A DNA stretch of 12,963 bases, taken from the IMG/VR virus record IMGVR_UViG_2541047825_000010, positions 1-12,963 of that record; one strand, given 5' to 3'. Source of the stretch: a virus. Its lineage: Duplodnaviria; Heunggongvirae; Uroviricota; Caudoviricetes. The notes under the pieces were generated by a model that saw only the letters and a program-made list of their open reading frames with translations, searched no databases and was not told where the DNA came from. Positions 1-12,963 of the stretch are shown here, one piece after another; within the stretch, counting starts at the first letter, position 1; each line of letters begins with the position of its first letter. The translations under genes were made by a program, and so were the position numbers.

Positions 1-1377
1 TCATACGTCAGCCCCTTGTGCATATCGTCTGCCACGCGCAGCAGGTGCATTTGATGCTGTGCAAATCTGTCTGGCTTCATCCTGGTCACATGCAACAAAG
101 TGTCCGTTGCAGAACCGCTGGTAAACCGTACCAAGTGAGCCAAAACGGTTTTTCGTCACAATGATTTCAGCAAATGGCGCGGCGCTACTGTTCTCGTCAT
201 ATACAGCTTCCCGATAGAGCATGATGATTGAGTCTGCGTCCTGTTCAATGCTTCCTGAATCACGCAAATCTGCGTTTGTCGGGCGTTTGTTTGGTCGCTT
301 CTCAACATCGCGCGAAAGCTGACTCAGGGAGATAACAGGCGTTTTCAGGTCTTTCGCCATCGCCTTCAGGCTTCCGGAGATGTGAGCAATTGCGAGGTCG
401 TTGCGATCTGCTTTCGGCTTCTCAATCAGGCCAAGATAATCCACCATGATGAGTGACAGGTTTGGATTTTCCTGTTTGTGCCGTTCTGCGATTGAGCGTA
501 TTTCTTCGACCGATAACCGCGAGGCATCGACTACCCATACATCCAAATCTGCAAGCTGACTCATGCCGTTAGCAACGCGCGCCCAGCCTTCGTCATCCAT
601 CGATGCAGGATTTCGCAGCACACTAACCGACATCCTCCCGGCGTTGGCAATACTTCGCTCTGCAATCTGCAATGCGCTCATTTCCATTGAGAAAATCAAC
701 ACTCCGCGCCGGACGTCAGAACCAGGAATAACGCGGCTTGCAACGCCTTCGGCAATCTTCAGCGCCAGTTCGGTTTTACCCATACCAGGACGAGCGGCGA
801 TAATCACCAGGTCTTCTGCGTTCATCCCTCCGGTGATGGCGTCAAGTTCGTCGATTCCGGTCTTCAGGGTATCTGACTCTTCTCCGTTCCTCAGACGCCT
901 GTCAAGCGTGTCAGTGTAGTCAGTGATGATTTCCCCTAACCGTACCGGTTTAACCTCGTCACGGGGCTTTCTGATGGCTGAAAGACGCTTTACAAGTTCA
1001 TCCATCGCCTGACTCGATGCGTCGATGGTTCCGCTCTGAATTGGTTCACGCATTTCATCCATGATTTCCAGCACCAGACGGCGGTGATAGTTATCCGCGA
1101 CCATTCCGGCATATCCCTTCAGGTTTGCGGCACTCGGGCAGTTTTTGCTGGTCATCAGGATTGACGTGAAATGCTCCTCTCCGCACGCCTCGGCAACCAT
1201 CAGCGCGTCGATTAAATTTCTGTTTCGCGCCTGCTTGCGGATAACCTCGAAGGCTTTCCGGTAGAGCGGAATTGAAAACGCTTCCGGCTCCAGCGTTGCC
1301 AGAACGTCGCTGGCGGTTGGAGTTAATCCACCAATCAGCAGGCCACCGATAACGCTCGCTTCGATATCCTGTCTCAT
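1..1377 (-). CDS. Replicative DNA helicase, DnaB family (phage P22 gene 12-type), 458 aa
   Basis: Full-length 458-aa ORF. Walker A P-loop [14 protein letters not shown] plus DnaB-like motifs [28 protein letters not shown]. Start ATG overlaps the stop of the upstream O-like gene (ATGA, 1374-1377). Stop codon is at window positions 1-3. Confidence 0.9.
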
Positions 1378-2321
1378 GCAATCCCCCTGTCTGCAAACTT
1401 CCCTTCCCGTACTCCCGTTAACGAATCTTCCCTCAACAGGTAATCAAAATCAGCCGTCCAGCCCGTGTCGTTGTCTCCGAAGTAAAACGGCTTGGCCTGA
1501 TGCACAAACGCCCTGACATACGCTCTGAAACCGTCCACGTTTGGCGTTTTCAGTTGCGGGATGATTTTCTTCAGGCGGCGTTTGCGTTTCTCGTTGACTG
1601 CAACAGCATGTGGAAGTCTGTCACCGACTTCGGTGTTGTAGGCGTTCAGGAAGGATTCGTAGTCGATTCGTTCTGCCTTGCGACGTTCAGGTTTAACCTG
1701 CCCATCGCCGCCCCCATTGGGGGGTAGGGGGGTATTATTTATATTCTTGTTAATACCTTCTTGTTCATGATGTGCGGTTGTTTGTGCGGCTTCATGTGCG
1801 CTTTCATGTGCGGAATGTGCGCTGAAAGCTGCGCCATTACTGGCTTCGTCATGTGCGGCATCATGTGCGGTTGTTTGTGCGGCATCATGTGCGGGTAAAT
1901 TGTCCATTTTTTGAGCATATTCATGGTAATTTGTGATGGTGATCACACGACCTTTTTGCTTCTCTCCATCAATGGAGATCATCCCTTCTTTCACAAAAAC
2001 CTGAAGCATCCGCTCAACCTGATCACGGCTTGCTGGCTTGCCATGTCTGTCGCATAACTGAAGACCTAAATCAGCTGCTGTCACAACCAGTTGACCGGGT
2101 TGCAGATGCCATTCATGACCTTTGAAATTCGCTTTGTATGGCTTTCTGGCGGCATTCAGGAGAAGGTTTTCCCACAGGGTGCGAAGATAAACATCTTTCG
2201 CCCATGACTGTTTCAGAATGCTCCGGTACAACGGAATGTAACCAGTTTTCTGGTTCTCCATCCTGTTGCTCCTGCGCTCGTGTGCGGCGCTGAAATCGTA
2301 GATTTTTGCTGTATTGCTCAT
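1374..2321 (-). CDS. Replication initiator, lambda O / P22 gene 18-like, 315 aa
   Basis: N-terminus [10 protein letters not shown] resembles lambda O (MTNTAKILNF, recalled). Lies between cII and the helicase as in lambdoid replication modules. Its central part is encoded by iteron repeats, giving a His/Ala-rich linker ([18 protein letters not shown]...). Confidence 0.85.
1765..1895. repeat. Candidate origin of replication: iterons inside the O-like gene, next to an AT-rich tract (1731-1764)
   Basis: About seven direct copies of a CATGTGCGG-type motif. The longer unit ATGTGCGGTTGTTTGTGCGGC occurs twice (about 1770 and 1870). The AT-rich block follows in the gene's reading direction, as in lambda ori. 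Confidence 0.6.
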
Positions 2322-2323
2322 AA

Positions 2324-2596
2324 CTACCTGCCTTGACGAAAGACCTTAAGAACATCGTTAAACTGACTTACGGATATGTCTTCTTTGAGAAGCTTTTCCA
2401 GAAATGCGTTTGGAATGAACGTATATCCCTCCTCTTTTGGTAGAGACGGGAGCAACGCCCTCGCCTCAGCCTTCAGAAGCTCAGTTCTGGCAACTTTCAC
2501 AAAAGAGATTTGAGTTCTTTCATCAATGGAACGAAGGAAGCGCAAACGCTTAGCTTCTTTGTGTGTATCAGGTGGATTAAAGCCTTTGTTTCGCAT
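2324..2596 (-). CDS. Hypothetical protein, 90 aa, between cII and the O-like gene
   Basis: Internal ATG at 2594-2596 preceded by a GAGG Shine-Dalgarno. The longer 193-aa track ORF would overlap cII, so the short start is preferred. No motif recognised. Confidence 0.5.
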   Translation of the reverse strand: MRNKGFNPPDTHKEAKRLRFLRSIDERTQISFVKVARTELLKAEARALLPSLPKEEGYTFIPNAFLEKLLKEDISVSQFNDVLKVFRQGR

Positions 2597-2601
2597 ATAA
2601 T
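2573..2601 (+). promoter_or_regulatory. Candidate Po promoter for the oop-like RNA
   Basis: -10 TATAAT at 2596-2601 with a weak -35 TGGATT at 2573-2578 (17-bp spacer), facing the cII 3' end. Confidence 0.4.
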
Positions 2602-2607
2602 TACCTC

Positions 2608-2672
2608 GTTGGATGTTGTTAAAATTCCATTTGTATTTGATCAGAACGCTCGGTTGCCGCCGGGCGTTTTTT
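2608..2672 (+). ncRNA. oop: oop-like antisense RNA overlapping the 3' end of cII
   Basis: 3' portion CAGAACGCTCGGTTGCCGCCGGGCGTTTTTTATT matches the lambda oop 3' end as recalled. Ends in a terminator (stem 2647-2653 / 2660-2666, T-run 2667-2672) lying inside the cII coding 3' end on the opposite strand. 5' end is estimated from the promoter. Confidence 0.55.
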
Positions 2673-2912
2673 ATTGGTGAGAATCGAAGCAACTTGTCGT
2701 GCCAATCGAGCCATGTCGTCGTCAACGACGCCCCATTCAAGAACAGCAAGCAGCATTGAGAACTTTGGAATCCAGTCCCTCTTCCACCTGCTGATCTGCG
2801 ACTTATCAACTCCCACAGCTTCCGCTGTCTTCTCAGTTCCAAGCATTGCGATTTTGTTAAGCAACGCACTCTCGATTCGTAGAGCCTCGTTGCGTTTGTT
2901 TGCACGAACCAT
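2619..2912 (-). CDS. cII: Transcriptional activator CII, 97 aa
   Basis: MVRANKRNEALRIESALLNKIAMLGTEKTAEAVGVDKSQISRWKRDWIPKF... is near-identical to lambda CII as recalled. Upstream context TAAGGAAATACTTACATATG matches lambda. The track ORF start at 2999 is an in-frame upstream extension. Confidence 0.92.
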   Translation of the reverse strand: MVRANKRNEALRIESALLNKIAMLGTEKTAEAVGVDKSQISRWKRDWIPKFSMLLAVLEWGVVDDDMARLARQVASILTNKKRPAATERSDQIQMEF

Positions 2913-2925
2913 ATGTAAGTATTTC
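2890..2925 (+). promoter_or_regulatory. pRE-type CII-activated promoter
   Basis: TTGC-N6-TTGC at 2890-2903 (TTGCGTTTGTTTGC) spanning the cII start, as in lambda pRE. Directed toward cro and c2. Confidence 0.5.
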
Positions 2926-2970
2926 CTTAACAAATAAGGAGTTATGCGCATCAACTTATGCGCGTTGTAT

Positions 2971-3013
2971 TCCCGCATTTCGGCGGGAATGAGGACCATG
3001 ACTGTTAAAGAGC
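2971..3013 (-). promoter_or_regulatory. nutR (boxA + boxB hairpin) between cro and cII
   Basis: On the minus strand: boxA GCTCTTTAACA and boxB TCCCGCCGAAATGCGGGA. Both are identical to the nutL copies at 4104-4144. Confidence 0.6.
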
Positions 3014-3020
3014 AATTTGC

Positions 3021-3206
3021 TTATGCCGCTTTGCGGTAAGCGCTTTCTTGATACTTCAGGGCGCCAGCTGTAACGACTTCCAGTCGATAGGCGTCTTTCT
3101 CTGGGATGACTTCCTTCCACTGAGAGACTGCTGCGTCGCTAATGCCTAACGCTTTAGCTACAGCACGCTGGGTTCCGAAGTGGTCGATAACATCTTTCTT
3201 GTACAT
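3021..3206 (-). CDS. cro: Cro repressor, P22 type, 61 aa
   Basis: MYKKDVIDHFGTQRAVAKALGISDAAVSQWKEVIPEKDAYRLE... is near-identical to P22 Cro as recalled. Divergent from c2 across the operator region. Confidence 0.92.
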   Translation of the reverse strand: MYKKDVIDHFGTQRAVAKALGISDAAVSQWKEVIPEKDAYRLEVVTAGALKYQESAYRKAA

Positions 3207-3220
3207 AGACTCGCTCCGAA

Positions 3221-3286
3221 ATTAAAGAACACTTAAATTATCCACTAAAGGAATCTTAAGTCAAGTTTATTTAAGATGTCTTAACT
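3221..3286. promoter_or_regulatory. OR1-OR3 operators with divergent PR (toward cro) and PRM (toward c2)
   Basis: Three 18-bp pseudo-palindromes of P22 type: ATTAAAGAACACTTAAAT (3221-3238), ACTAAAGGAATCTTAAGT (3244-3261), ATTTAAGATGTCTTAACT (3269-3286). Minus-strand PR: -35 TTGACT (3259-3264), 17-bp spacer, -10 ATAATT (3236-3241). c2 has no Shine-Dalgarno and may be leaderless. Confidence 0.7.
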
Positions 3287-3937
3287 ATGAAAACTCAATT
3301 GATGGGAGAGCGCATTCGCGCTCGGAGAAAAGAACTCAAGATCAGGCAGGCCGCACTTGGAAAGATGGTCGGCGTGTCTAATGTTGCCATATCTCAGTGG
3401 GAACGCTCTGAGACAGAGCCAAATGGAGAGAATCTTCTCGCCCTGGCTAATGCGTTGAAGTGTTCCCCTGACTATCTGATGAAAGGAGAGGAAAGTCTTT
3501 CAAACATTGCCTATCACAGTAGGCATGATCCAAGAGGGTCATACCCTCTGATTAGCTGGGTGAGCGCAGGATGCTGGATGGAAGCTGTAGAACCATATCA
3601 TAAGCGTGCAATAGATAACTGGTACGATACAACCGTAGACTGTTCAGAAGATTCGTTTTGGTTGGACGTGAAGGGAGACTCAATGACGGCTCCGGCCGGT
3701 CTCAGTATCCCTGAAGGAATGATAATACTCGTCGATCCTGAAGTAGAGCCGCGTAACGGGAAACTGGTAGTTGCAAAGCTCGAAGGAGAAAACGAGGCAA
3801 CTTTCAAGAAGTTAGTTATTGATGCAGGCAGGAAGTTTCTAAAACCACTTAACCCACAATATCCGATGATCGAGATCAACGGAAACTGCAAAATCATCGG
3901 CGTAGTTGTCGATGCAAAACTAGCAAACCTTCCATAA
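3287..3937 (+). CDS. c2: Prophage repressor C2 (CI-type, HTH plus LexA-like S24 autopeptidase domain), 216 aa
   Basis: Near-identical to P22 C2 as recalled (MxTQLMGERIRARRKxLKIRQAALGKMVGVSNVAISQWERSETEPNGENLL..., C-terminal GDSM...KL). Confidence 0.93.
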   Translation: MKTQLMGERIRARRKELKIRQAALGKMVGVSNVAISQWERSETEPNGENLLALANALKCSPDYLMKGEESLSNIAYHSRHDPRGSYPLISWVSAGCWMEAVEPYHKRAIDNWYDTTVDCSEDSFWLDVKGDSMTAPAGLSIPEGMIILVDPEVEPRNGKLVVAKLEGENEATFKKLVIDAGRKFLKPLNPQYPMIEINGNCKIIGVVVDAKLANLP

Positions 3938-3960
3938 GGGGGCATTCGCCCCTTTTTTTT
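3938..3960 (+). terminator. Rho-independent terminator after c2
   Basis: GGGGC-ATTC-GCCCC hairpin followed by eight T. Confidence 0.7.
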
Positions 3961-4002
3961 ATTTCCTTTAAAAATCAAAGCCAAACTTAAGTTACGAAAG
4001 AA

Positions 4003-4064
4003 AATTTAAGTTTTCTTCAAAAATACTCTTGACCATTAATTAAAGAGATCTTAAATTTAAGCCA
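4003..4064 (+). promoter_or_regulatory. OL operators and PL promoter
   Basis: Operator-like 18-mers ATTTAAGTTTTCTTCAAA (4004-4021) and ATTAAAGAGATCTTAAAT (4039-4056). -35 TTGACC (4029-4034), 17-bp spacer, -10 TAAATT (4052-4057), with the operator overlapping the promoter. Confidence 0.55.
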
Positions 4065-4103
4065 TCAGCAGGACGCTGGAAGCCAAACGGAACAGATTGG
4101 CAG

Positions 4104-4144
4104 GCTCTTTAACATTGATGGGATTGTCCCGCCGAAATGCGGGA
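4104..4144 (+). promoter_or_regulatory. nutL (boxA GCTCTTTAACA, boxB hairpin TCCCGC-CGAAAT-GCGGGA)
   Basis: Identical boxA and boxB to the minus-strand copy after cro. Lies in the PL leader upstream of N. Confidence 0.6.
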
Positions 4145-4160
4145 ACCAAAGAGTAGTTGG

Positions 4161-4232
4161 CTTTGGGGTGACGTGAAGTGCAGCTGCACGACGGCAACCG
4201 GAAGATAAGCACCCGGCGCGTCACCGCCAAAG
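4161..4232 (+). promoter_or_regulatory. Long-range stem-loop in the N leader
   Basis: CTTTGGGGTGACG (4161-4173) pairs with CGTCACCGCCAAAG (4219-4232). Encloses a perfect 12-bp palindrome GTGCAGCTGCAC (4178-4189). Lies 20 nt upstream of the N start. Confidence 0.4.
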
Positions 4233-4251
4233 TCAATCATCGGAGGTCAAC

Positions 4252-4551
4252 ATGACAGTAGTCATTACATATCTGGCTGACGATAACGCCAGAAATCGCC
4301 GCAGAGCACGCAGACAGGCTCAACGTGAACAGGCAATGCAAGAGCAGCGACTGGCGCGAAAAATTGCGCTAAAGCTCTCTGGTTGCGTCAGGGCAGATAA
4401 AGCAGCATCACTCGGAAGCCTTCGCTGCAAGAAGGCAGAAGAAGTCGAGCGTAAACAGAACCGTATTTACTACCGCAAGCCACGCAGTGAAATGGGTGTG
4501 ACTTGTGTTGGTCGCCAGAAAATGAAATTAGGCAGCAAACCACTTATTTGA
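4252..4551 (+). CDS. N: Antitermination protein N (P22 gene 24 equivalent), 99 aa
   Basis: N-terminal arginine-rich motif NARNRRRARRQAQREQ. C-terminus ...NRIYYRKPRSEMGVTCVGRQKMKLGSKPLI resembles the lambda N C-terminus as recalled. First gene after PL and nutL. Shine-Dalgarno GGAGG. Confidence 0.85.
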   Translation: MTVVITYLADDNARNRRRARRQAQREQAMQEQRLARKIALKLSGCVRADKAASLGSLRCKKAEEVERKQNRIYYRKPRSEMGVTCVGRQKMKLGSKPLI

Positions 4552-4559
4552 GGTGAGAT

Positions 4560-5030
4560 ATGACAAAATCATGGAGCGTACCTTTTCCTGAATCAGAAAC
4601 TGAACATGATGGAATGCCTGTTTTCTGGAGATTCCAGGCGACAGTTGAAGAAGATGGAATCAAAATATTCGCACTTCAATATATAGCTTTTCATCAGACA
4701 GAGCATTATGCATGGTTGGTTCCTGCGCATTGGATTATTGATTTTAAACCAGCACCAAATCAGTGGTTACGGGAATGGAAACAAAGGAGAAATAGATATG
4801 CAATTAAGAAAGTAGCAAAAAATGCAGAAAGATCTTTTGCATTCCCAACGAAGAAACTTGCCATTGAAAGTTTATTGCGCCGGAAGAAATACCATTTAAT
4901 GAGAATCAAACAAGATTTGGCTGTTGTATCAACTCTTGTTGATGGGATGAAGAATATTGATACATCAACACCAGATATTGAATATAACTTTGGACACAAC
5001 CAAGAAACAGAAAATTGGGTATTCTACTAG
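4560..5030 (+). CDS. Hypothetical protein, 156 aa, AT-rich moron
   Basis: ATG 8 nt after the N stop with Shine-Dalgarno AGGTGAG. G+C is lower than neighbours by eye. No predicted transmembrane segment and no recognised motif. Confidence 0.7.
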   Translation: MTKSWSVPFPESETEHDGMPVFWRFQATVEEDGIKIFALQYIAFHQTEHYAWLVPAHWIIDFKPAPNQWLREWKQRRNRYAIKKVAKNAERSFAFPTKKLAIESLLRRKKYHLMRIKQDLAVVSTLVDGMKNIDTSTPDIEYNFGHNQETENWVFY

Positions 5031-5054
5031 GCCGCATAGTCGGCCTTTATTTTT
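5029..5054 (+). terminator. Rho-independent terminator after the 156-aa ORF
   Basis: AGGCCG-CATAGT-CGGCCT hairpin followed by TTATTTTT. Confidence 0.6.
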
Positions 5055-5076
5055 GGCATAAACAACAGAGGTGAAT

Positions 5077-5211
5077 ATGAACGCAGTTGAATTTACAAAA
5101 TGGATGGCAGAGCAAGATATCACAGGAGCCGACGAAAAGGCTGTGTACTACATGGCTCTGCTATGGATTCACAAAGCAAAAGAGGCTGCAAATGCTCTTG
5201 GAGGTGAGTAA
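5077..5211 (+). CDS. Hypothetical small protein, 44 aa (MNAVEFTKWMAEQDITGADEKAVYYMALLWIHKAKEAANALGGE)
   Basis: Not in the ORF track (below 60 aa). Shine-Dalgarno AGAGGTGA 3-10 nt upstream of the ATG. Stop overlaps the next ORF's start (TAATG). Confidence 0.4.
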   Translation: MNAVEFTKWMAEQDITGADEKAVYYMALLWIHKAKEAANALGGE

Positions 5212-5399
5212 TGAAAGTAAAAATAACTGCTTCTAATACCAGTTTTGTTAGTGTTGGTGATATTACAGAAGTAATAACAAACCATGATGGAACACAAGTT
5301 ATGTGGTCTGATTTTTGTAAAAGATATGAGCGAGTCACTTGGTGTAAACTCGTATGGGGCGTCGAATACGAAGAATTACCTGAAATGCATGACGAATAA
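5211..5399 (+). CDS. Hypothetical protein, 62 aa
   Basis: Translationally coupled to the 44-aa ORF. Occupies the ral/sieB-type interval but has no recognised similarity. Confidence 0.5.
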   Translation: MKVKITASNTSFVSVGDITEVITNHDGTQVMWSDFCKRYERVTWCKLVWGVEYEELPEMHDE

Positions 5400-5494
5400 G
5401 CACTGTGTATTCATTCCAACGAGTGAATACACGGAGCAATGTCGCTCGTAACTAAACAGGAGCCGACTTGTTCTGATTATTGGAAATCTTCTTT

Positions 5495-5520
5495 GCCCTC
5501 CAGTGTGAGGGCCTTTTTAT
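5495..5520 (+). terminator. Rho-independent terminator upstream of cIII
   Basis: GCCCTC-CAGTGT-GAGGGC hairpin followed by CTTTTTAT. Confidence 0.55.
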
Positions 5521-5584
5521 ATGCATACCAATAACGCTTCACTCGAGGCGTTTTCGTTATGCAATCAAACAGAAGGAGCATCCT

Positions 5585-5755
5585 ATGCAACAGTTCGCTA
5601 TTGCAGGGGCGGCATCGGTTCGCCCTTTCAACCCGATTTTATCGGTACAGCATTCACGAAAAAATATTTTAACCGGAGCAGACTTTAAACAACCAAGAAT
5701 GAAAAGTTTGCTCGAAAAGCTTTGGGATATTTTGAAACAACAAGGCCGTCCATGA
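5585..5755 (+). CDS. cIII: CIII (FtsH inhibitor that stabilises CII), 56 aa
   Basis: MQQFAIAG... and the central ...MKSLLEKLWDILKQQG resemble lambda CIII (MQYAIAG...WKRLIDILNQPG, recalled). Shine-Dalgarno AAGGAG. The track ORF start at 5480 lies inside the upstream terminator and was rejected. Confidence 0.8.
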   Translation: MQQFAIAGAASVRPFNPILSVQHSRKNILTGADFKQPRMKSLLEKLWDILKQQGRP

Positions 5756-5922
5756 GTTTTATAGATAACTGGTCAGACGAAGAATTCATTCGTCAGATGA
5801 AAGAATTAATCGGTAACGAAGGAGATATTCATGTCACTTGCAACCACCGTGAAGGAGAGCAAGTTACAGAGACGCATGTACACGCGGCAGGCGTTAATGT
5901 ATCGCCAGAAGGGAGATCGTGA
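5752..5922 (+). CDS. Hypothetical protein, 56 aa, in the Kil position
   Basis: ATG overlaps the cIII stop (ATGA). Lambda kil likewise overlaps the cIII end. No sequence similarity recognised, so the Kil role is positional only. Confidence 0.45.
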   Translation: MSFIDNWSDEEFIRQMKELIGNEGDIHVTCNHREGEQVTETHVHAAGVNVSPEGRS

Positions 5923-6011
5923 AGGTGTTCGCGTCTTTTTAAATGCGGCAAAGACTGAAGTATTAAATCAGCGTTATTTCCTTGGGCCATGTCCATTCTG
6001 AGAACAATCAT

Positions 6012-6617
6012 ATGAGCAAAGAATTTTACGCAAGACTGGCAGCTATTCAGGAGAATCTGAACGCGCCAAAGAATCAGTACAACTCATTCGGCAAATATAA
6101 ATACAGAAGCTGCGAAGACATTCTTGAAGGCGTTAAGCCGTTACTGAATGGCCTGTTTTTATCAATCAGCGATGAAGTTGTGTTGATTGGTGATCGGTAT
6201 TACGTGAAAGCCACGGCAACTATTACCGATGGCGAAAACAGTCATACAGCAACCGCTCTTGCACGAGAGGAAGAAAGCAAGAAAGGAATGGATTCTGCAC
6301 AAGTTACTGGAGCTACAAGCTCTTATGCACGCAAGTATTGCCTCAATGGTTTATTCGGCATTGATGATGCGAAAGATGCAGATACCGACGAGCATAAACA
6401 TCAGCAGAACGCAGCAGCAAAGCAATCAAAACCATCACCTACACCTGAACAGGTTCTAAAAGCATTCACTGACGCAGCAATGCAGAAAAACACCGTAGAA
6501 GAGCTTAAACAGGCGTTCGCCAAAGCGTGGAAGATGCTCGAAGGCACACCGGAGCAGCACAAAGCGCAGGACGTTTACAACATCAGACGAGACGAATTAG
6601 AAGGAGCGGCTGCTTAA
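6012..6617 (+). CDS. erf: Erf, essential recombination function (single-strand annealing protein), 201 aa
   Basis: MSKEFYARLAAIQENLNAPKNQYNSFGKYKYRSCEDILEGVKPLL... closely matches P22 Erf as recalled. First ATG in frame; the track start at 5982 is a TTG. Confidence 0.9.
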   Translation: MSKEFYARLAAIQENLNAPKNQYNSFGKYKYRSCEDILEGVKPLLNGLFLSISDEVVLIGDRYYVKATATITDGENSHTATALAREEESKKGMDSAQVTGATSSYARKYCLNGLFGIDDAKDADTDEHKHQQNAAAKQSKPSPTPEQVLKAFTDAAMQKNTVEELKQAFAKAWKMLEGTPEQHKAQDVYNIRRDELEGAAA

Positions 6618-7000
6618 TGGCACATTCGATTACAGTAAGACTAAACAAACCCGCAAGAGAGTTTCAGGCCGGGGAAAATATCGGATTCAACATCCGTGCT
6701 GGCGTTCAGTATTACGATCGCCAGACAAAAAAGAAAGAATGGACAAACTACAGCGCCGTTGTATTTGCCAAGCCGGGAGCGCAAGCGGATTACTACCGTA
6801 GTGTTCTTGTTGAAGGTGGCATTGTGGAAATTACCGGAGAAAACATCAGGGTTGATGTTTATCAGGGGCAAAATGGTCAATCAATCACTCTTGAATTACT
6901 GAATGCAAAGATTGGATTTGCAGCTTCAGGAAACAGCCAACAGCAGCAAAGTAGCAATCATCAAAATCATCCTGAATACGACGATTCAATTCCATTCTAG
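6617..7000 (+). CDS. Compact SSB-like single-stranded DNA-binding protein, 127 aa
   Basis: C-terminal tip PEYDDSIPF resembles the conserved bacterial SSB tail DDDIPF, after a Q-rich linker and a short strand-rich N-terminal domain. Shine-Dalgarno AAGGAG. TAATG overlap with erf. Confidence 0.65.
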   Translation: MAHSITVRLNKPAREFQAGENIGFNIRAGVQYYDRQTKKKEWTNYSAVVFAKPGAQADYYRSVLVEGGIVEITGENIRVDVYQGQNGQSITLELLNAKIGFAASGNSQQQQSSNHQNHPEYDDSIPF

Positions 7001-7023
7001 ATTAGCAAAATAAGGATTCCATT

Positions 7024-7317
7024 ATGCCAGCGCCTCTGTATGGTGCGGATGACCCGCGCCGCTGTTCCGGCAATTCCGTATCGGAGGTGCTGGATAAATT
7101 CAGGAAAAACTACAACCGGATAATGTCGATACCGCAGGAAACGAAAGAGGAAAAGGAATTTCGCCATTGTATATGGCTTGCAGAGAAAGAAGAACGCGAG
7201 CGAATTTACCAGACATCAATCCGACCATTCCGCAAAGCCACATATACCCACTTCCCTGAAATTGACCCGCGCCTGCGTAATTACCGCTCACGCTATGGCG
7301 CTATCAGTAATGACTGA
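7024..7317 (+). CDS. Hypothetical protein, 97 aa
   Basis: Shine-Dalgarno TAAGGA 7 nt upstream. Position after erf and the 97-aa length are compatible with P22 Abc2 (anti-RecBCD), but this rests on synteny and length only. Confidence 0.6.
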
Positions 7318-7327
7318 GGAATTTACC

Positions 7328-7492
7328 ATGAGAGGACTTGCATACAATCCCGGCATTCTTCCGGCAGAAATGATTATTCGCCAACGCGTAAAGCCAATGC
7401 CATCGAGAGAGGAATTGCTTAAGAGAAATTCTTTTCCATCAGTGAATCAAAACAAATATCTGAATGCGATGTGGCGGAGTGGGAAAAAATGA
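7328..7492 (+). CDS. Hypothetical protein, 54 aa
   Basis: Shine-Dalgarno GAGGA 7 nt upstream. Stop overlaps the next start. Confidence 0.45.
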
Positions 7493-7926
7493 AACAAATG
7501 TCACTAATTGAGATGGATGGTTTTCTGAAAGGTAAATGCATCCCACGAGATTTAAAGGTTAACGAAACAAACGCTGAATATCTGGTGCGTAAATTTGCTG
7601 AAGCGGAGGCCAAGTGCGCGGCGCTGGCTGCTGAAGTTGAGGCTGTGAAATCAGCACATCAAGATGCTGTAAACACCATCATGTATACCGCCAATCGAAC
7701 GGGTGTTTTATACACAGAGAAGGCAATTCAAATGTCCTGCAAAACCCCGGCCACCGATGCTTTCCTGACTGAAGTCCGGGCTAAGGCGTTTGATGACCTT
7801 TGCGCGGCGTTCGTTAAGCACGCGTCGGTGTCCGGGCTGGACGATGGCGACTGCGTTACGGTGAAAGAGGCGACTGACGCCCTGCTGCATTGTGCGGAAC
7901 AGCTTCACAAGGGAGTGCATTCATGA
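7489..7926 (+). CDS. Hypothetical protein, 145 aa
   Basis: ATGA overlap with the upstream ORF. Shine-Dalgarno GGAG. Ala/Glu-rich predicted helical segment. No family recognised. Confidence 0.6.
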
Positions 7927-8156
7927 GCAACCTACTACCATGTCCATTCTGTGGCGGTGCAGCGCACGTTGCCAGCGAAGCAGATCACCCTGAATATGGC
8001 TCTGGCGGTCGATTCTATTTCGTTCGATGCGGTACGTGTCGCGCTCAATCTGGTAGCAAATATGCAGCGCCTGGAAATGACTGCGCGATTTTTTATTCAG
8101 AGGTTAGAGCAGAGTGGAATCAGCGAGCAAAGGAGGCAACCAGTGAGCAAGATTGA
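7923..8156 (+). CDS. Lar-family-like zinc-ribbon protein (restriction alleviation), 77 aa
   Basis: N-terminal LLPCPFCGG...C..C zinc-ribbon signature typical of the Lar family as recalled. ATGA overlap with the upstream gene. Confidence 0.6.
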   Translation: MSNLLPCPFCGGAAHVASEADHPEYGSGGRFYFVRCGTCRAQSGSKYAAPGNDCAIFYSEVRAEWNQRAKEATSEQD

Positions 8157-8550
8157 CTATCAGGCACTGCGTGAAGCGGCAGAGAAAGCCGGTGAAGATA
8201 AGTGGCAGGCTAAAAAAATAAATGGTGATTTTTTCGTTATTCGTCACGGTAGTTATACAAGACAGCATGGCTACACATCGTATCAACCCATTGCGGAGAT
8301 TGATTGTAAGCCAGTCCGGGATTTTGTTGCCAAGGCTAATCCGGCTACCGTGCTGGAATTACTGGATGAACTGGAAGCAGCAAAAAAGCGCATTGCAGAA
8401 CTGGAAGCGCGGGAAATATCGCTCCCGGAACGTAGCAGCATGCTTCATCGAACAGATTTTCACGATGATTACCAAACGGTAATGGCATACAAAGTTTCTG
8501 AAGTCATCGATGCAATCCGCGCTACTGGCATTCGCATCAAAGGAGAGTGA
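8143..8550 (+). CDS. Ead/Ea22-like protein, 135 aa
   Basis: GTG start 6 nt after a strong AGGAGG. KIDYQALREAAEKAGED and NPATVLELLDELEAAKKRIAELEA resemble Ea22-family motifs as recalled. Overlaps the Lar-like gene by 14 nt. Confidence 0.6.
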   Translation: MSKIDYQALREAAEKAGEDKWQAKKINGDFFVIRHGSYTRQHGYTSYQPIAEIDCKPVRDFVAKANPATVLELLDELEAAKKRIAELEAREISLPERSSMLHRTDFHDDYQTVMAYKVSEVIDAIRATGIRIKGE

Positions 8551-8551
8551 T

Positions 8552-8839
8552 ATGGCAACTTTGCAGGAATTAATCGACCTGACGCCAGAACAGGAAAAAG
8601 CGTGGAATCGCCTTGTGAAGGCTGTAAAGGATTTCAGGGCAGCCGGAGGAAAGTTTTATAGCGTCCTGGACACGCTGAGCGCATACAACGGCGAGCACGT
8701 TGCCAGCATTGATAACGATAAGGGCTACCACACTGCAAGCGTCTATATGCCTAGCATTGATGCGCCAGGGCTAACCAGTTGGGCTGATGATTGGCACGGC
8801 ATCACGCTGAAAGATGGCGTTGAAGTGGATGAGGACTAA
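8552..8839 (+). CDS. Hypothetical protein, 95 aa
   Basis: Shine-Dalgarno AGGAGAG. ATG 1 nt after the upstream stop. Confidence 0.6.
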   Translation: MATLQELIDLTPEQEKAWNRLVKAVKDFRAAGGKFYSVLDTLSAYNGEHVASIDNDKGYHTASVYMPSIDAPGLTSWADDWHGITLKDGVEVDED

Positions 8840-8842
8840 CAC

Positions 8843-9529
8843 ATGACTACTTTTACCGACAAAGAACTGATTAAAGAAATCAGAGAGCGAATCGGCAGCC
8901 TGGACGTGCGAGACAATATTGAGCGCCTGGCTTATGAAATCGCACTGGCATCGCTGGCAGCAGTATCGGATGAACGAGCAGCCTATGAATTATTTATGGA
9001 GAAGCGTTTCGGGGAATCTGTAGATCGCCGTAGGGCAAAAAATGGCGATAGAGAATACATGGCATGGGATATGGCGCTTGGCTGGATTATCTGGTGTCAC
9101 CGCGCCGCCATGCTTCAGGGTAGCCAACCTGTAAGCCAAACTTACAACTTGCCAGAATTAATCGAAGGCATGGAAGTTTCCATTGATGTAAGCACTTGTG
9201 ATGCTGATTTAGGTAATCGCTATTTCGGCACCGTCACCGAGGCGTTAGAACTTGATACAGCCAAGAATGGTTACATCCTCCTGGTTCAGGACGCAGAGCC
9301 AAACTTCGATGTAAATGGCAACTATCCGGTAATTCCGGATGGTTGGATAAGCTGTAGTGAGCGAATGCCCCCTCAAGATGATTGGATTTTAATTTATTCA
9401 AAGCACGGCGAGTATATGGCAGGACAGGTGCAAGGGGAATACGTGGAGTTGAGCGACGGCACTTTATCGTGGTTAGGGAACGTCTTGTTCTGGATGACGT
9501 TGCCAGAACCTCCGAAGGGGGCGAAATGA
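8843..9529 (+). CDS. DUF551-like phage protein, 228 aa
   Basis: C-terminal DGWISCSERMPPQDDWILIY...WMTLPEPP resembles the DUF551 signature as recalled. Shine-Dalgarno GAGGA. Confidence 0.7.
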   Translation: MTTFTDKELIKEIRERIGSLDVRDNIERLAYEIALASLAAVSDERAAYELFMEKRFGESVDRRRAKNGDREYMAWDMALGWIIWCHRAAMLQGSQPVSQTYNLPELIEGMEVSIDVSTCDADLGNRYFGTVTEALELDTAKNGYILLVQDAEPNFDVNGNYPVIPDGWISCSERMPPQDDWILIYSKHGEYMAGQVQGEYVELSDGTLSWLGNVLFWMTLPEPPKGAK

Positions 9530-9786
9530 TGGATGTAAAAGAGAAGGTTTTGCAGGTGATGCGTTCCCGGGCTGCCCTGCAAGATAAAGCTCTCGGCGGG
9601 GAATATCCATTCACGATAGCAACCTGGAATCTGCGGTTGGCAATGGAGAAGGAATTTCCTGATGAAGAATGGCGTTCGGCAGATTTGCGCAAAATTCTTA
9701 TGGAGCTGGCTAAAGACGGAACAGTATCCAAAGATACCCATGCCAGCCGGATTGGTCAGGCGGTATGGAGACTGGAGGTGAGGTAA
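9526..9786 (+). CDS. Hypothetical protein, 86 aa
   Basis: ATGA overlap with the upstream stop. Shine-Dalgarno AAGGGGG. Confidence 0.6.
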   Translation: MMDVKEKVLQVMRSRAALQDKALGGEYPFTIATWNLRLAMEKEFPDEEWRSADLRKILMELAKDGTVSKDTHASRIGQAVWRLEVR

Positions 9787-10070
9787 TGGCTAACCTGCAA
9801 CTTGCCGTTAAAGGTGAATACTTCGATGCCATGATTCGCGGGGAGAAAACGGAAGAGTATCGCCTGTGTAATGACTACTGGAATAAGCGCCTCGTTAACC
9901 GTAAGTATGACCGCCTGATTATCACAAAGGGATATCCGAAGCGCGACGATTCCAGCCGCAGAATTGACGTCCCGTATGACGGATATGAAATCAAGACAAT
10001 CACACATCCCCACTTCGGCGATAAACCGGTAAAGGTGTTCGCGATAAAGGTGAATATCGGCAATGAATAA
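9786..10070 (+). CDS. ASCH-like small beta-barrel protein, 94 aa
   Basis: LAVKGEYFDAMIRGEKTEEYR fits the ASCH pattern (YF..I..G.KT.E.R) as recalled. TAATG coupling. Shine-Dalgarno GGAGGTGAGG. Confidence 0.55.
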   Translation: MANLQLAVKGEYFDAMIRGEKTEEYRLCNDYWNKRLVNRKYDRLIITKGYPKRDDSSRRIDVPYDGYEIKTITHPHFGDKPVKVFAIKVNIGNE

Positions 10071-10104
10071 CAATCCTCGAACTCGCGGGGATTTCTTTTA
10101 TCTG

Positions 10105-10130
10105 AACTCGCTACGGCGGGTTTTGTTTTA
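10105..10130 (+). terminator. Rho-independent terminator closing the coupled operon
   Basis: AACTCGC-TACG-GCGGGTT hairpin followed by TTGTTTTA. A degenerate upstream copy sits at 10078-10100. Confidence 0.45.
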
Positions 10131-10141
10131 TGGAGATGATT

Positions 10142-10441
10142 ATGGCCTGTTCAACATTCAACCATCTAACGTTACAGAAATACCAGCCAGACCCTGAAGA
10201 TTTATGCTCACTGTGTGGCGGAAATCATGGTAAAGCCGCCATGATCGAATGTAAGGACAAAATCCACATTTGCCTTAATTGCGTTGATGTCCTCGTTGAT
10301 ATCAAAAATGAGAGAGAAGATAAAAAGCGTAGCGAGGCTATTCGCGCATTAGATTCATGGATGCGAGATGGGTATAGTGCTGCGCAAATTTATGACTTCG
10401 CAATATCAAAAGGCGAAATACCAGGAGTGCGCATCGAATAA
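10142..10441 (+). CDS. Hypothetical Cys-rich (CxxC...CxxC) protein, 99 aa
   Basis: Three in-frame ATGs (10130, 10136, 10142). 10142 is chosen for the GGAGA Shine-Dalgarno 5 nt upstream. Cysteine pairs CSLCGG and CLNC. Confidence 0.55.
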   Translation: MACSTFNHLTLQKYQPDPEDLCSLCGGNHGKAAMIECKDKIHICLNCVDVLVDIKNEREDKKRSEAIRALDSWMRDGYSAAQIYDFAISKGEIPGVRIE

Positions 10442-10483
10442 GACGTAACCAATATTCGAATTGAAGAACTGAAAGAACACCAA

Positions 10484-10506
10484 GCCGCCTGATGGCGGTT
10501 TTTTAT
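10484..10506 (+). terminator. Rho-independent terminator
   Basis: CCGCC-TGAT-GGCGG hairpin followed by TTTTTTATT. Confidence 0.6.
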
Positions 10507-10518
10507 TGGAGACAAGAA

Positions 10519-10863
10519 ATGTCAGATTTGGCTATGAAGATTTTGAAATGGCAAACGACTGGCGATGTTGGCATCAGTAGCGCAACTCTTGCCTCAATCG
10601 CATGTGGACTGAAAAAGAATATCTATGGTCATCACTTCGGCGCTCCACATGACGCAGCAGATTTCCGACGATGCGTTGCACTTGTTGAGCAGATTCCAGA
10701 AGTCAGAGATTCATTCGACAAGGTTGCAAAGCGTGTTCCGGCATTCAAAGGCATTCTCAACGAATGGGATTCCCTCGTTGCTCTGTTGAAGTCTGAAATG
10801 AAGATACACGGAAACAAAGCACCAGAGACTTACAGAAGAATTAGCGAGTTACGCAAGGATTAA
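10519..10863 (+). CDS. Hypothetical protein, 114 aa
   Basis: Shine-Dalgarno GGAGA 6 nt upstream. The gene sits between the terminator at 10484-10506 and the two downstream terminators. No family recognised. Confidence 0.6.
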   Translation: MSDLAMKILKWQTTGDVGISSATLASIACGLKKNIYGHHFGAPHDAADFRRCVALVEQIPEVRDSFDKVAKRVPAFKGILNEWDSLVALLKSEMKIHGNKAPETYRRISELRKD

Positions 10864-10868
10864 CCACA

Positions 10869-10945
10869 GCCTCACACTCGATGAGGCCTGTTCATTTCTC
10901 AAGATATCCAGACCTACCATCGCCGCATCAATGCGGTTTTTTATT
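10869..10945 (+). terminator. Two tandem terminator hairpins
   Basis: GCCTCA-CACTCGA-TGAGGC (10869-10887, weak T-run) and CCGCA-TCAA-TGCGG followed by TTTTTTATT (10923-10945). Confidence 0.55.
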
Positions 10946-10952
10946 ACCTGAT

Positions 10953-10968
10953 TTGCAGGTTCGATTCC
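10953..10968 (+). other. tRNA 3'-half fragment: T-arm portion TTGCAGGTTCGATTCC (att-associated)
   Basis: 16-nt match to the T-stem and T-loop of a tRNA (argW-type tRNA-Arg as recalled). Similarity stops right after GATTCC. Confidence 0.4.
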
Positions 10969-10987
10969 CTATTCGGAGATAGCACTC

Positions 10988-11188
10988 ATGCAACACGAAC
11001 TACAGCCTGATTCACTGGTTGATTTGAAATTCATCATGGCCGATACTGGCTTTGGTAAAACCTTCATCTACGACCGGATTAAGTCCGGCGACCTGCCAAA
11101 AGCCAAAGTTATCCACGGGCGAGCAAGATGGTTATATCGTGACCATTGTGAATTCAAAAATAAGCTCTTAAGCCGCGCCAATGGGTAA
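10988..11188 (+). CDS. AlpA/Xis-like excisionase-type DNA-binding protein, 66 aa
   Basis: LVDLKFIMADTGFGKTFIYDRIKSGDLPKAKVIHGRARW fits the AlpA-family HTH pattern as recalled. Shine-Dalgarno GGAGA. Lies next to the att-like tRNA fragments. Confidence 0.65.
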   Translation: MQHELQPDSLVDLKFIMADTGFGKTFIYDRIKSGDLPKAKVIHGRARWLYRDHCEFKNKLLSRANG

Positions 11189-11261
11189 AATAGCGGGTAA
11201 AATATTTCTCACATCTAAAAAACACCATTCTAATCAATCCCCTGCCGCGTCAAGTAGATGT

Positions 11262-11276
11262 CTGCAGGGGACACCA
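11262..11276 (+). other. tRNA 3'-end fragment CTGCAGGGGACACCA (acceptor 3' strand plus CCA; att-associated)
   Basis: Matches the 3' terminus of the same tRNA. No corresponding 5' half anywhere in the window. Confidence 0.45.
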
Positions 11277-11662
11277 GATACCCTTCAAACGATATCTACC
11301 TTCACCCCGTAAAAGATAAGTTTGGCAGCACATTTGCCCTATCTACTCATTTTTCCTGCAACAGGTTGAAATCTCAACACGGTCAGAAAACGCTGATGAC
11401 TAAACAGCCCTGGGCTGGGCGATGTAACCATCACACACAATCCTGATCGCGAAATATGGCGTGACTTGATACTTCACTCCACAATGCTTTCCTTGATGAA
11501 TTCGCAGGCCCGTGATACACGGGACAGGTCGCTGAATTACGACAATGCCCTGGAAATCAGCGAGCCGTGTATCCGGAGTACATTTGAGCGACTGTACCAG
11601 AACATGAATGAGGCGTTTGGATTAGGCGATTATTAGCAGGGCTAAGCATTTTGGTATTATTA

Positions 11663-11706
11663 TTTTCCGGTTGAGGGATATAGAGCTATCGACAACAACC
11701 GGAAAA
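11663..11706. terminator. Inverted repeat, candidate bidirectional terminator at the cscB 3' end
   Basis: TTTTCCGGTTG (11663-11673) and CAACCGGAAAA (11696-11706) with a 22-nt loop and AT-rich flanks. Lies between convergent reading frames. Confidence 0.4.
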
Positions 11707-11715
11707 AGTTTACGT

Positions 11716-12963
11716 TTATATTGCTGAAGGTACTGGCGTTTCCATCACTATTTGCTCACGTTTTTTACTCAGGAAGAAAATGCCAAATAGCAACATCAGG
11801 CAGACAATACCCGAAATTGCGAAAAAAACCGTCTGGTAGCCTGCGTGGTCAAAGAGTATCCCAGTCGGCGTTGAAAGCAGCACAATCCCCAACGAACTGG
11901 CAATTTGAAAACCAATCAGAAAGATCGTCGACGACAGGCGCTTATCAAAATTTGCCACGCTGTATTTGAAGACGGATATGACACAAAGTGGAACCTCAAT
12001 GGCATGTAACAGCTTCACTAATGAAATAATCCAGGGGTTAACGAATAGCGCGCAGGAAAGGATACGCAACGCCATAATCACAACACCGATAAGTAATGCA
12101 TTTTTTGGCCCTACCCGATTCACAAAGAAAGGAATAATCGCCATGCACAGCGCTTCGAGTACCACCTGGAATGAGTTGAGATAACCATACAGGCGCGTTC
12201 CTACATCGTGGGATTCGAATAAACCTGCATAAAAGACAGGAAAGAGTTGTTGATCAAAAATGTTATAGAAAGACCACGTCCCCACAATAAATATGACGAA
12301 AACCCAGAAGTTTCGATCCTTGAAAACTGCGATAAAATCCTCTTTTTTTACCCCTCCCACATCCGCCGCTACGCACTGGTGTTCCTGCTCTTTAAAACGC
12401 ATGTTGATCATCATAAATACAGCGCCAAATAGAGAGACCAACCAGAAGTTGATATGGGGACTGATACTAAAAAATATGCCAGCAAAGAATGCGCCAATAG
12501 CATAGCCAAAAGATCCCCAGGCGCGCGCTGTTCCATATTCGAAATGAAAATTTCGCGCCATTTTTTCGGTGAAGCTGTCAAGCAAACCGCATCCCGCCAG
12601 ATACCCCAGACCAAAAAAGAGCGCCCCCAGAATTAAACCTACAGAAAAATTGCTTTGCAGTAACGGTTCATAAACGTAAATCATAAACGGTCCGGTCAAG
12701 ACCAAGATGAAACTCATACACCAGATGAGCGGTTTCTTCAGACCGAGTTTATCCTGAACGATGCCGTAGAACATCATAAATAGAATGCTGGTAAACTGGT
12801 TGACCGAATAAAGTGTACCTAATTCCGTCCCTGTCAACCCTAGATGTCCTTTCAGCCAAATAGCGTATAATGACCACCACAGCGACCAGGAAATAAAAAA
12901 GAGAAATGAGTAACTGGATGCAAAACGATAGTACGCATTTCTGAATGGAATATTCAGTGCCAT
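11716..12963 (-). CDS. cscB: Sucrose:H+ symporter, LacY-family MFS (CscB-like), 415 aa
   Basis: Twelve-helix hydrophobic profile. Clear LacY-like blocks (DKLGLKK, GPFMIYVYEPLLQ, EYGTARAWGSFGYAIG, PKNALLIG). N-terminus MALNIPFRNAYYRF matches CscB as recalled. Start codon is at the window edge. Confidence 0.85.
   Translation of the reverse strand: MALNIPFRNAYYRFASSYSFLFFISWSLWWSLYAIWLKGHLGLTGTELGTLYSVNQFTSILFMMFYGIVQDKLGLKKPLIWCMSFILVLTGPFMIYVYEPLLQSNFSVGLILGALFFGLGYLAGCGLLDSFTEKMARNFHFEYGTARAWGSFGYAIGAFFAGIFFSISPHINFWLVSLFGAVFMMINMRFKEQEHQCVAADVGGVKKEDFIAVFKDRNFWVFVIFIVGTWSFYNIFDQQLFPVFYAGLFESHDVGTRLYGYLNSFQVVLEALCMAIIPFFVNRVGPKNALLIGVVIMALRILSCALFVNPWIISLVKLLHAIEVPLCVISVFKYSVANFDKRLSSTIFLIGFQIASSLGIVLLSTPTGILFDHAGYQTVFFAISGIVCLMLLFGIFFLSKKREQIVMETPVPSAI

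Follow-up and report, generated by a model that had tools for sequence, protein, structure and literature searches.

An N-leader RNA of a lambdoid prophage with a lambda-like basal stem and a compact, separately conserved three-way junction

Results

Structure and conservation of the N leader

We analysed a 12,963-nucleotide (nt) stretch of caudoviral DNA (IMG/VR record IMGVR_UViG_2541047825_000010, positions 1 to 12,963; hereafter the window), which is the immunity-left part of a lambdoid prophage shown in the direction of its pL promoter. The gene for a CI-type repressor is followed by pL, by the antitermination site nutL (boxA and boxB) and by the antitermination gene N, and repressor gene and N share their direction of transcription, as they do in lambda. 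The pL transcript carries a structured RNA element that follows nutL and precedes the ribosome-binding site of N, a placement with which the annotations of phages phi21 and HK620 agree (Table 1). We describe its fold and its conservation, and argue that it is probably the counterpart, in the phi21/HK620 type, of the RNase III-cut hairpin in the lambda N leader, with an interior, or cap, that forms a conserved module of its own.

The original prediction described a large structured N leader in which a long-range pairing of 13-14 nt encloses a palindrome. Positions 4155-4240 folded at -40.6 kcal/mol, compared with -25.7 +/- 3.3 kcal/mol for 200 dinucleotide-preserving shuffles (z = -4.56), and 0 of the 200 shuffles were as stable as the native sequence, in keeping with that description. 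The arms also pair as proposed, CTTTGGGGTGACG (4161-4173) with CGTCACCGCCAAAG (4219-4232), as 6 + 7 base pairs (bp) around a bulged G4226, and the 3' arm stops 20 nt before the start codon of N, an ATG at 4252. The pairing of 13-14 nt is correct but understates the helix, which runs over 20 bp (helix P1; 4156-4175 with 4217-4237) with G4226 as its single bulge and a lowest pair probability of 0.83. Helix P1 starts 13 nt 3' of boxB and ends 4 nt before the Shine-Dalgarno (SD) sequence of N, 15 nt before the ATG. The functional RNA is the + strand, because G-U pairs are numerous in helix P1 on that strand, the model scores the + strand of the element at 103 bits and the - strand at 19.5, and the opposite strand folds more weakly (-34.2 versus -40.6 kcal/mol).

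The leader occurs in many phages, in several diverged forms, as BLAST searches showed. Two pattern scans of IMG/VR, combined with phage records, yielded 119 copies that represent 49 distinct true variants; the second of the scans was blind to helix P1, since it was anchored on two loop motifs alone. The fold that these variants have in common is a three-way junction composed of helix P1, a joining segment J1/2 (AAGUGCA), the hairpin P2, an AA dinucleotide and the hairpin P3. P2, recognised from individual folds of the variants and from an alignment of the core, is a hairpin of 3-5 bp directly 3' of the junction block GAAKUGCAG, with stems such as GUC/GAC, GCC/GGC, GGG/CCC, GCU/AGC and GGC/GCC. 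In the P3 stem, 3 of the 4 pairs covary while the loop, AAGAUAAGCAY, is near-invariant, and the junction block behaves like the loop: in 37 distinct variants, 7 of its 9 positions never change, and the second G of UGCAG hardly does. Across these 37 variants, the stems vary freely and the junction and the P3 loop are for the most part invariant or close to it. The junction UGC and the P3-loop GCA, both invariant, could pair as a pseudoknot, and the neighbouring position shows no consistent covariation.

Three alignments were used to assess the pairing, with compensatory changes at 9-13 pairs across them. In a MAFFT alignment of 27 distinct variants, covering helix P1 and P3, 92% of the cells were paired, compared with 30-45% when the partners were slid against each other, and 11 pairs had changed on both sides; the covariation score was 0.389 versus 0.159 for shuffled alignments, and 0 of 500 shuffles reached the native value. 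A model-fitted alignment of 29 distinct N-leader variants, which is biased towards the structure by construction, gave 96.7% pairing over helix P1 and P3, with compensatory changes at 13 of 24 pairs; 10 of the 20 pairs of helix P1 had changed on both sides. For the core of three helices in 37 variants, 93.5% of the cells were paired and the score was 0.524 versus 0.183 for shuffles (0 of 500 reaching native), with slid versions at 0.104 or below. The structure of the leader is thus maintained by selection.

Table 1. Positions of the leader RNA, its parts and the neighbouring features in the window.
Feature	Position	Strand	Basis or remark
Gene for CI-type repressor	3287-3937	+	ORF (open reading frame) list; Pfam Peptidase_S24 1e-30, HTH_3 1e-16
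Intrinsic terminator (tIMM) 3' of the repressor gene	3936-3960	+	Terminator scan; HK620 equivalent annotated tIMM
pL promoter, -35 TTGACC, 17 nt, -10 TAAATT	4029-4057	+	Promoter scan; HK620 and phi21 annotations
nutL boxA GCTCTTTAACA	4104-4114	+	Aligned site is boxA-L in the phi21 annotation and lies inside HK620 nutL
nutL boxB hairpin CCCGC-CGAAAT-GCGGG	4128-4143	+	Whole-leader fold; inside annotated HK620 nutL
P0, alternative hairpin, CCAAAG (4146-4151) with CTTTGG (4161-4166)	4146-4166	+	Between boxB and helix P1
Helix P1, 5' strand GUUGGCUUUGGGGUGACGUG, containing the GGCUUUGGGGUG block common to lambda	4156-4175	+	Fold; covariation
Conserved junction block GAAKUGCAG (J1/2 = 4176-4182)	4175-4183	+	Conservation in 37 distinct variants
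12-nt palindrome GTGCAGCTGCAC	4178-4189	.	Arises where the conserved junction, the 5' strand of P2 and the beginning of its loop overlap
P2 hairpin GCUG-CACGA-CGGC	4183-4195	+	Helix covaries across variants
P3 hairpin CCGG/CCGG, 11-nt loop AAGAUAAGCAC (4202-4212)	4198-4216	+	Stem covariation; loop conservation
Helix P1, 3' strand CGCGUCACC-G-CCAAAGUCAAU, G4226 unpaired	4217-4237	+	Fold; covariation
N Shine-Dalgarno sequence GGAGG	4242-4246	+	4 nt 3' of helix P1
N antitermination gene, 99 amino acids, arginine-rich N-terminus NARNRRRARRQ, lambda-like C-terminus	4252-4551	+	Annotations of near-identical genes

The palindrome and the opposite strand

A perfect palindrome of 12 nt, which contains a PvuII site (CAGCTG), is indeed enclosed by the arms of helix P1, but the special role given to it in the original prediction did not hold up. 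Perfect 12-nt palindromes occur at chance frequency in the window (2 observed versus about 3.2 expected). As a conserved feature, the hairpin that the palindrome could form was rejected: only 56% of its cells are paired in the 37 variants, a value equal to that of shuffles, 272 of 500 of which reached native. In the window, the folds with the palindrome hairpin and with P2 are just 1.2 kcal/mol apart (-40.6 versus -39.4 kcal/mol, the P2 version being the less stable), so thermodynamics leaves the choice undecided and it is the comparison across variants that favours P2. The palindrome is therefore incidental: it results from the junction ..GUGCA being followed by the GCUG strand of P2 and the beginning of its loop. 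A function of the palindrome at the DNA level is not supported, given its chance frequency and its lack of conservation.

These results bear on a broader suspicion, namely that the conservation reflects not an RNA but a protein-binding or restriction site in the palindrome, a recombination boundary sequence, a real minus-strand ORF (4057-4236 in the window) or some other artefact of DNA, coding or chance. Whole-interval annotation of a boundary sequence does exist, since the record of phage CUS-3 labels everything from cI to N as bsq5, and minus-strand genes have been drawn over the element: Lambda_2E9 has a hypothetical protein annotated on an ORF that covers the homologous region, and the phage P1 copy described below lies inside plp, a minus-strand coding sequence for a putative lipoprotein. 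While one minus-strand frame is free of stop codons in 48 of the 49 variants, the two invariant blocks stand 16, 17 or 18 nt apart depending on the variant, which rules out a reading frame common to both, and the window ORF has no protein similarity to Plp of phage P1 (E = 18), though both overlap the element. On these grounds, a protein-coding gene on either strand was rejected. Compensatory changes and G-U pairs, moreover, are specific to the + strand RNA, and the leader carries neither a + strand terminator nor an internal promoter. We consider an origin of this kind highly improbable.

Other identities were rejected as well. The element is not an intrinsic terminator or attenuator: the terminator scan found no terminator-like site on the + strand between 3961 and 4600, and the sequence 3' of helix P1 is CAUCGGAGG. 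A promoter scan likewise found no internal promoter in the N leader. There was no match at gathering thresholds to any Rfam 15 family in the whole window, and a permissive scan of 3930-4300 returned sub-threshold matches only, none above 18 bits, which excludes AgvB, AsxR, the C4 antisense RNA and the known ribozymes as identities; AgvB/AsxR and the Pas prophage small RNAs are in any case RNAs of the late region.

Comparison with lambda, P22 and phi21

The original prediction suggested that the element might be the counterpart of the lambda N-leader hairpin, and the sequence, bulge and position of the basal stem all speak for this. The lambda leader (NC_001416) reads GGCUUUGGGGUGUGUG ... CACACACC-A-CCAAAGCU, with the SD sequence 10 nt 3' of CCAAAG, and the leader in the window reads GGCUUUGGGGUGACGUG ... 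CGCGUCACC-G-CCAAAGUC, with the SD sequence 9 nt 3' of CCAAAG. Over GGCTTTGGGGTG, the 5' strands of the two basal stems are identical at 12 of 12 nt. Both stems can be written as GGCUUUGGGGUG / CACC-R-CCAAAG, with an unpaired purine at the same place in the 3' strand, and both leaders have the same order of parts: pL, boxA, boxB, long stem, SD sequence and N. They differ in the interior, which in lambda is an unrelated branched structure of about 90 nt and in the window a compact three-way junction of 41 nt, in the length of the leader (188 nt in the window, 223 nt in lambda), and in the specificity of boxB and of the RNA-binding arm of N.

The leader of gene 24 of phage P22 is arranged in the same order (boxA, boxB, P0, long basal stem, SD sequence and N-analogue gene). 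Its basal stem is GGUUUGG...CC-A-CCAAAGCC, and its interior is large and unrelated to the junction in the window. In some P22-like phages (Salmonella 118970_sal4 and Lambda_2E9), the compact junction stands in place of the P22 interior. The phi21 leader shares the design, and the leaders of the window, lambda, P22 and phi21 all fold alike. A covariance model built from the compact family only, referred to as R1, matched the leaders of lambda (23.2 bits, E 1e-3) and P22 (22.6 bits, E 2e-3) from end to end, treating their larger interiors as insertions. Because sequence, bulge and layout are shared and the model matches from end to end, the basal stem of the window is, on sequence grounds, homologous to that of the lambda hairpin and not just analogous to it, with only the interior different.

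In lambda, RNase III cuts the stem-loop in the N 5' untranslated region, which promotes translation of N (PMC4419217), and N together with Nus factors at NutL represses N translation, an autoregulation that requires more than simple occlusion, as nutL is far from the SD sequence in the primary sequence (PMC5725501). References to Steege 1987 and to Wilson 1997, 2002 and 2004 are given there, with Wilson et al. listed in PMC5725501. With 20 bp, helix P1 is near the approximately 22 bp that a dimer of RNase III accommodates (PMC6212723). In P22, a small-RNA survey found an abundant and stable RNA of 96 nt, P22B, which covers the interior of the homologous hairpin together with its 3' strand and stops 16 nt short of the AUG of gene 24 (PMC13397905); this shows that the homologous leader of P22 is processed in vivo, by RNase III or by another nuclease.

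An alternative pairing within the leader

The outer 5' strand of helix P1 can also pair upstream, forming a small hairpin, P0, between boxB and helix P1 (Table 1), so P0 and outer helix P1 are mutually exclusive. P0 was present in every nut-type N leader examined, including those of lambda and P22, as 9 distinct helices with compensatory changes: CCAAAC/GUUUGG in P22 (locus L339, - strand; L numbers denote our loci), CCAGAAC/GUUUUGG in phi21 and UCAAAGC/GCUUUGG in lambda (L008, - strand), where it lies just 5' of GGCTTTGGGG. In the P22 type, a G that is paired in P0 is mismatched in helix P1. The P0 conformer is 10 kcal/mol less stable than full helix P1 in the window, so P0 is most likely an intermediate of co-transcriptional folding.

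Does the leader need to be cut at all? Helix P1 might instead serve as a scaffold that holds NUTL by the ribosome-binding site of N for autorepression, or as a 5' structure that stabilises the mRNA or modulates ribosome access, with P0 as a folding step. The geometry would suit such a role, with nutL and the SD sequence within a few nt of the same end of helix P1, as would the conserved competition of P0 for the outer 5' strand in all nut-type leaders (lambda and P22 included) and the need of lambda autoregulation for an explanation beyond occlusion (PMC5725501). Given the 10 kcal/mol advantage of helix P1, however, no equilibrium switch is expected. Where the stem is common to lambda, the sequence is conserved and not the pairing alone, as would be expected of a site of recognition or cleavage more than of a neutral scaffold, and in lambda the cleavage itself is documented (PMC4419217). 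A role free of cleavage therefore strikes us as improbable, if less so than an artefact.

Spread among N types

Complete with outer helix P1, the element keeps a constant distance to the start codon that follows it in at least 8 types of N (HK620-like, phi21-like, P22 gp24-like, H-19B-like, lambda-like and three further types), and the boxB hairpins ahead of it are of several types, including phi21-, P22- and lambda-like. Leaders of the window type are present in 425 of 5426 complete E. coli genomes (about 8%), where they are never annotated, and the element is left blank even in the richly annotated records of phi21 and HK620.

One phage (L281 and L280) carries a lambda-type boxB, GCCCTGAAAAAGGGC, and a lambda-like N, MDSQARRRERRAAKQAEW..., and yet has the compact junction in place of the large lambda interior, from which we conclude that the cap is exchanged independently of the specificity of N and boxB. 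In the basal stem of this phage, CCUAAA takes the place of CCAAAG.

In a further set of leaders, an insertion, about 207 or about 85 bp long and flanked by repeated CCAAAGT, sits exactly between the 3' end of helix P1 and the SD sequence of N. Its carriers are CUS-3 (L002, about 1801-2007), IME10, Gally and the loci L011, L015 and L030. The CUS-3 insert contains a boxA-like sequence, TGCTCTTCC, followed by a hairpin, CCCCG-TCTAATTGG-CGGGG, and may carry a second nut-like site.

Occurrence of the core outside N leaders

In more than 20 contexts that have no N, the scan that was blind to helix P1 also recovered the core closed by an inner helix of only 9 bp and devoid of the CUUUGG/CCAAAG stem. 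In 9 of 24 such loci, a gene just upstream on the same strand encodes a CI-type repressor, which makes these 9 early-left leaders of N-less temperate phages. In L266, for example, a leader of about 0.9 kb made up of non-coding modules precedes YfdQ/YfdR-like genes (as read from ORF translations). Phages P1, P7 and D6, which have the same arrangement, make up the largest N-less group; the phage P1 copy scores 73 bits (L343 980-1042; AF234173 69263-69325) and belongs to the C1-controlled ban operon, directly after the genes for tRNA-Asn and tRNA-Thr. A helix of 9 bp is too short for RNase III, so the core must be conserved for another reason.

Locus L027 has the element with its outer stem, beginning about 10 nt after a sequence that is about 85% identical to the pL leader of HK022 and followed by an SD sequence and an ORF of 38 codons. 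We take the HK022-like segment to be putL, judging by its position, the HK022 record lacking an annotation of it. HK022 put and the element are alike in being structured RNAs at the start of a lambdoid pL transcript, but L027 has the two side by side as separate units, with the putL-like sequence upstream. An identity with put was rejected, as the best match of model R1 on HK022 (12 bits, E 0.09) was not convincing.

Several further units accompany the core in N-less leaders. A short unit, GCTGTGTGTAGTC..., which ends in an intrinsic terminator, lies downstream of it, mostly within about 50 nt, in L254, L333, L291 and L053 as well as in L027; it resembles a small RNA gene and has no Rfam match. 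Upstream of the element, at the start of N-less early-left leaders, the hairpin motif ACCACCGNGCCTGANGTGGTTAAAAGNCAGGC recurs (L266 5880-5960, L254, L053), and resembles the 3' part of the P22 sas RNA as printed in PMC13397905. The core in L267 (4791-5100) lies between a tRNA (Rfam, 77 bits; it reads as tRNA-Asn) and an apparent tRNA-Ser gene identified by eye, and the units are bordered by long hairpins (ACAACGGTAAGGGTATT / GAATGCCCTTACCGTTGT) of about 19 bp. An Rfam scan of the N-less loci found tRNAs only.

Could the core (inner helix P1, P2 and P3) then be an autonomous RNA module, either a site for a host or phage factor or a cassette for processing or release, to which the outer stem is a local addition and for which control by RNase III is secondary or absent? 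The near-invariance of junction and P3 loop amid freely varying stems is what such a module would show, as is its presence without the outer stem in the N-less contexts, directly after the HK022-putL-like sequence of L027 and in the phage P1 ban operon after the tRNAs, and the module matches no Rfam family. In N leaders, however, the core is always found inside the lambda-type basal stem and at a fixed distance from the SD sequence, and lambda and P22 keep that stem with wholly different, larger interiors, which suggests that for the function of the N leader the interior is interchangeable. The conservation of the loop could also reflect, in part, a recent horizontal spread of one module, and both partner and activity are so far conjectural. 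As an account of the N leader, we find this reading unlikely, although it is the strongest of the alternatives that we considered.

Genes and sites around the leader

The pL transcript would start at A4064, within ATCAGCAGG, a sequence identical to that of the lambda pL start; the leader length of 188 nt is inferred from this position. The window has one other perfect palindrome of 12 nt, CTTAAATTTAAG (4050-4061). It overlaps the -10 region of pL, related half-sites (TTAAG/CTTAA) lie upstream of it at 3983-4016, and the CI-type repressor probably uses these sites as its OL operators. The boxB hairpin, if read with a stem of 5 bp, has a 6-nt loop, CGAAAT, compared with the GNRA-like pentaloop of lambda and P22; alternatively, the C and U close the loop and leave a GAAA tetraloop on a C-U mismatch.

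N in the window is of the phi21/HK620 type, and near-identical genes are annotated as N in HK620, CUS-3, N7 and others. Its C-terminal 35 amino acids are 57% identical to lambda N (BLASTP, E 4e-11), and its match to the Pfam family N_peptide is weak (E 8e-4, under the family cut-off).

Discussion

The data above establish the structure of the leader element, its position and strand, its conservation and its relationship to the lambda leader. What it does is best explained, in our judgement, by its being the phi21/HK620-type version of the RNase III-cut lambda hairpin, a reading that we hold to be probable though by no means certain. Helix P1 brings nutL, 13 nt upstream of it, beside the ribosome-binding site of N, 4 nt downstream of it. 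By homology with lambda, N and Nus factors bound at NUTL on the elongating polymerase would be positioned next to this ribosome-binding site and would repress translation of N. A staggered cut in helix P1 by host RNase III would then separate the polymerase-tethered nut RNA from the N message and so lift the repression, and the output of N would follow the RNase III activity of the cell.

The leaders of ribosomal RNA (rRNA) operons offer a parallel for this layout. There too, in a leader with boxA and boxC, an antitermination signal tethered to the polymerase is followed at once by the 5' strand of a long-range helix cut by RNase III, and a review describes boxC as being 'delivered' to its downstream complement (PMC8632103). 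The two are not homologous in sequence, about 1.5 kb of 16S rRNA lies inside the rRNA helix compared with 41 nt in the window, and the outcome in rRNA operons is maturation of rRNA and not control of translation.

Several points weigh against our interpretation or limit its reach. Cleavage by RNase III and its effect on N in this type of leader are inferred by homology with lambda. In lambda, the cuts lie in the basal stem (positions near +88 to +90 and about +197 from the pL start), which would place them in the part of the stem that is common to the window. P22B has its 3' end immediately beyond the stem and not within it. N-less leaders and the ban operon of phage P1 carry the core with a closing helix of only 9 bp, so the conservation of the core is not explained by RNase III or by autoregulation of N. 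Nor does RNase III require the near-invariant nucleotides of the junction and the loop.

The cap is a separately conserved module, and its invariant loops suggest an additional role. It can be defined by a closing helix, the block GAAKUGCAG, a short P2 with a CNNNGA-type loop and a P3 with the loop AAGAUAAGCAY, and it is an undescribed, reusable module on the early transcripts of several groups of temperate phages. Its loops are near-invariant, Rfam has no family for it, none of the records examined annotates it, and N-less leaders and phage P1 reuse it; we therefore regard it as a candidate for a new RNA family. We raise only tentatively, as a possibility against which the odds still lie, that the junction is a widespread phage RNA module with a function of its own, for instance a fold that binds a factor or a cassette for processing or 'release'. 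If this were true, the cassette would free N mRNA, small RNAs and tRNAs from the polymerase-tethered part of the early transcript, which would explain its position after many nut specificities, after a put-like site and beside tRNAs in the phage P1 ban operon. The alternative between P0 and outer helix P1 would add a co-transcriptional switch, also present in lambda, for which the records examined carry no annotation.

Of the genes under pL, N is expressed first, and lambdoid phages develop at a pace set by the level of N; in lambda, this level depends, through the leader hairpin, on host RNase III and hence on growth conditions. The stem is conserved, with covariation, ahead of at least 8 N types, including those in HK620/CUS-3-like, phi21/DE3, Stx-converting and Salmonella P22-like phages, which suggests that control of N of the RNase III type is general among lambdoid phages and not particular to lambda. 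The compact element, at 82 nt, provides a much smaller and better defined substrate on which such control can be tested.

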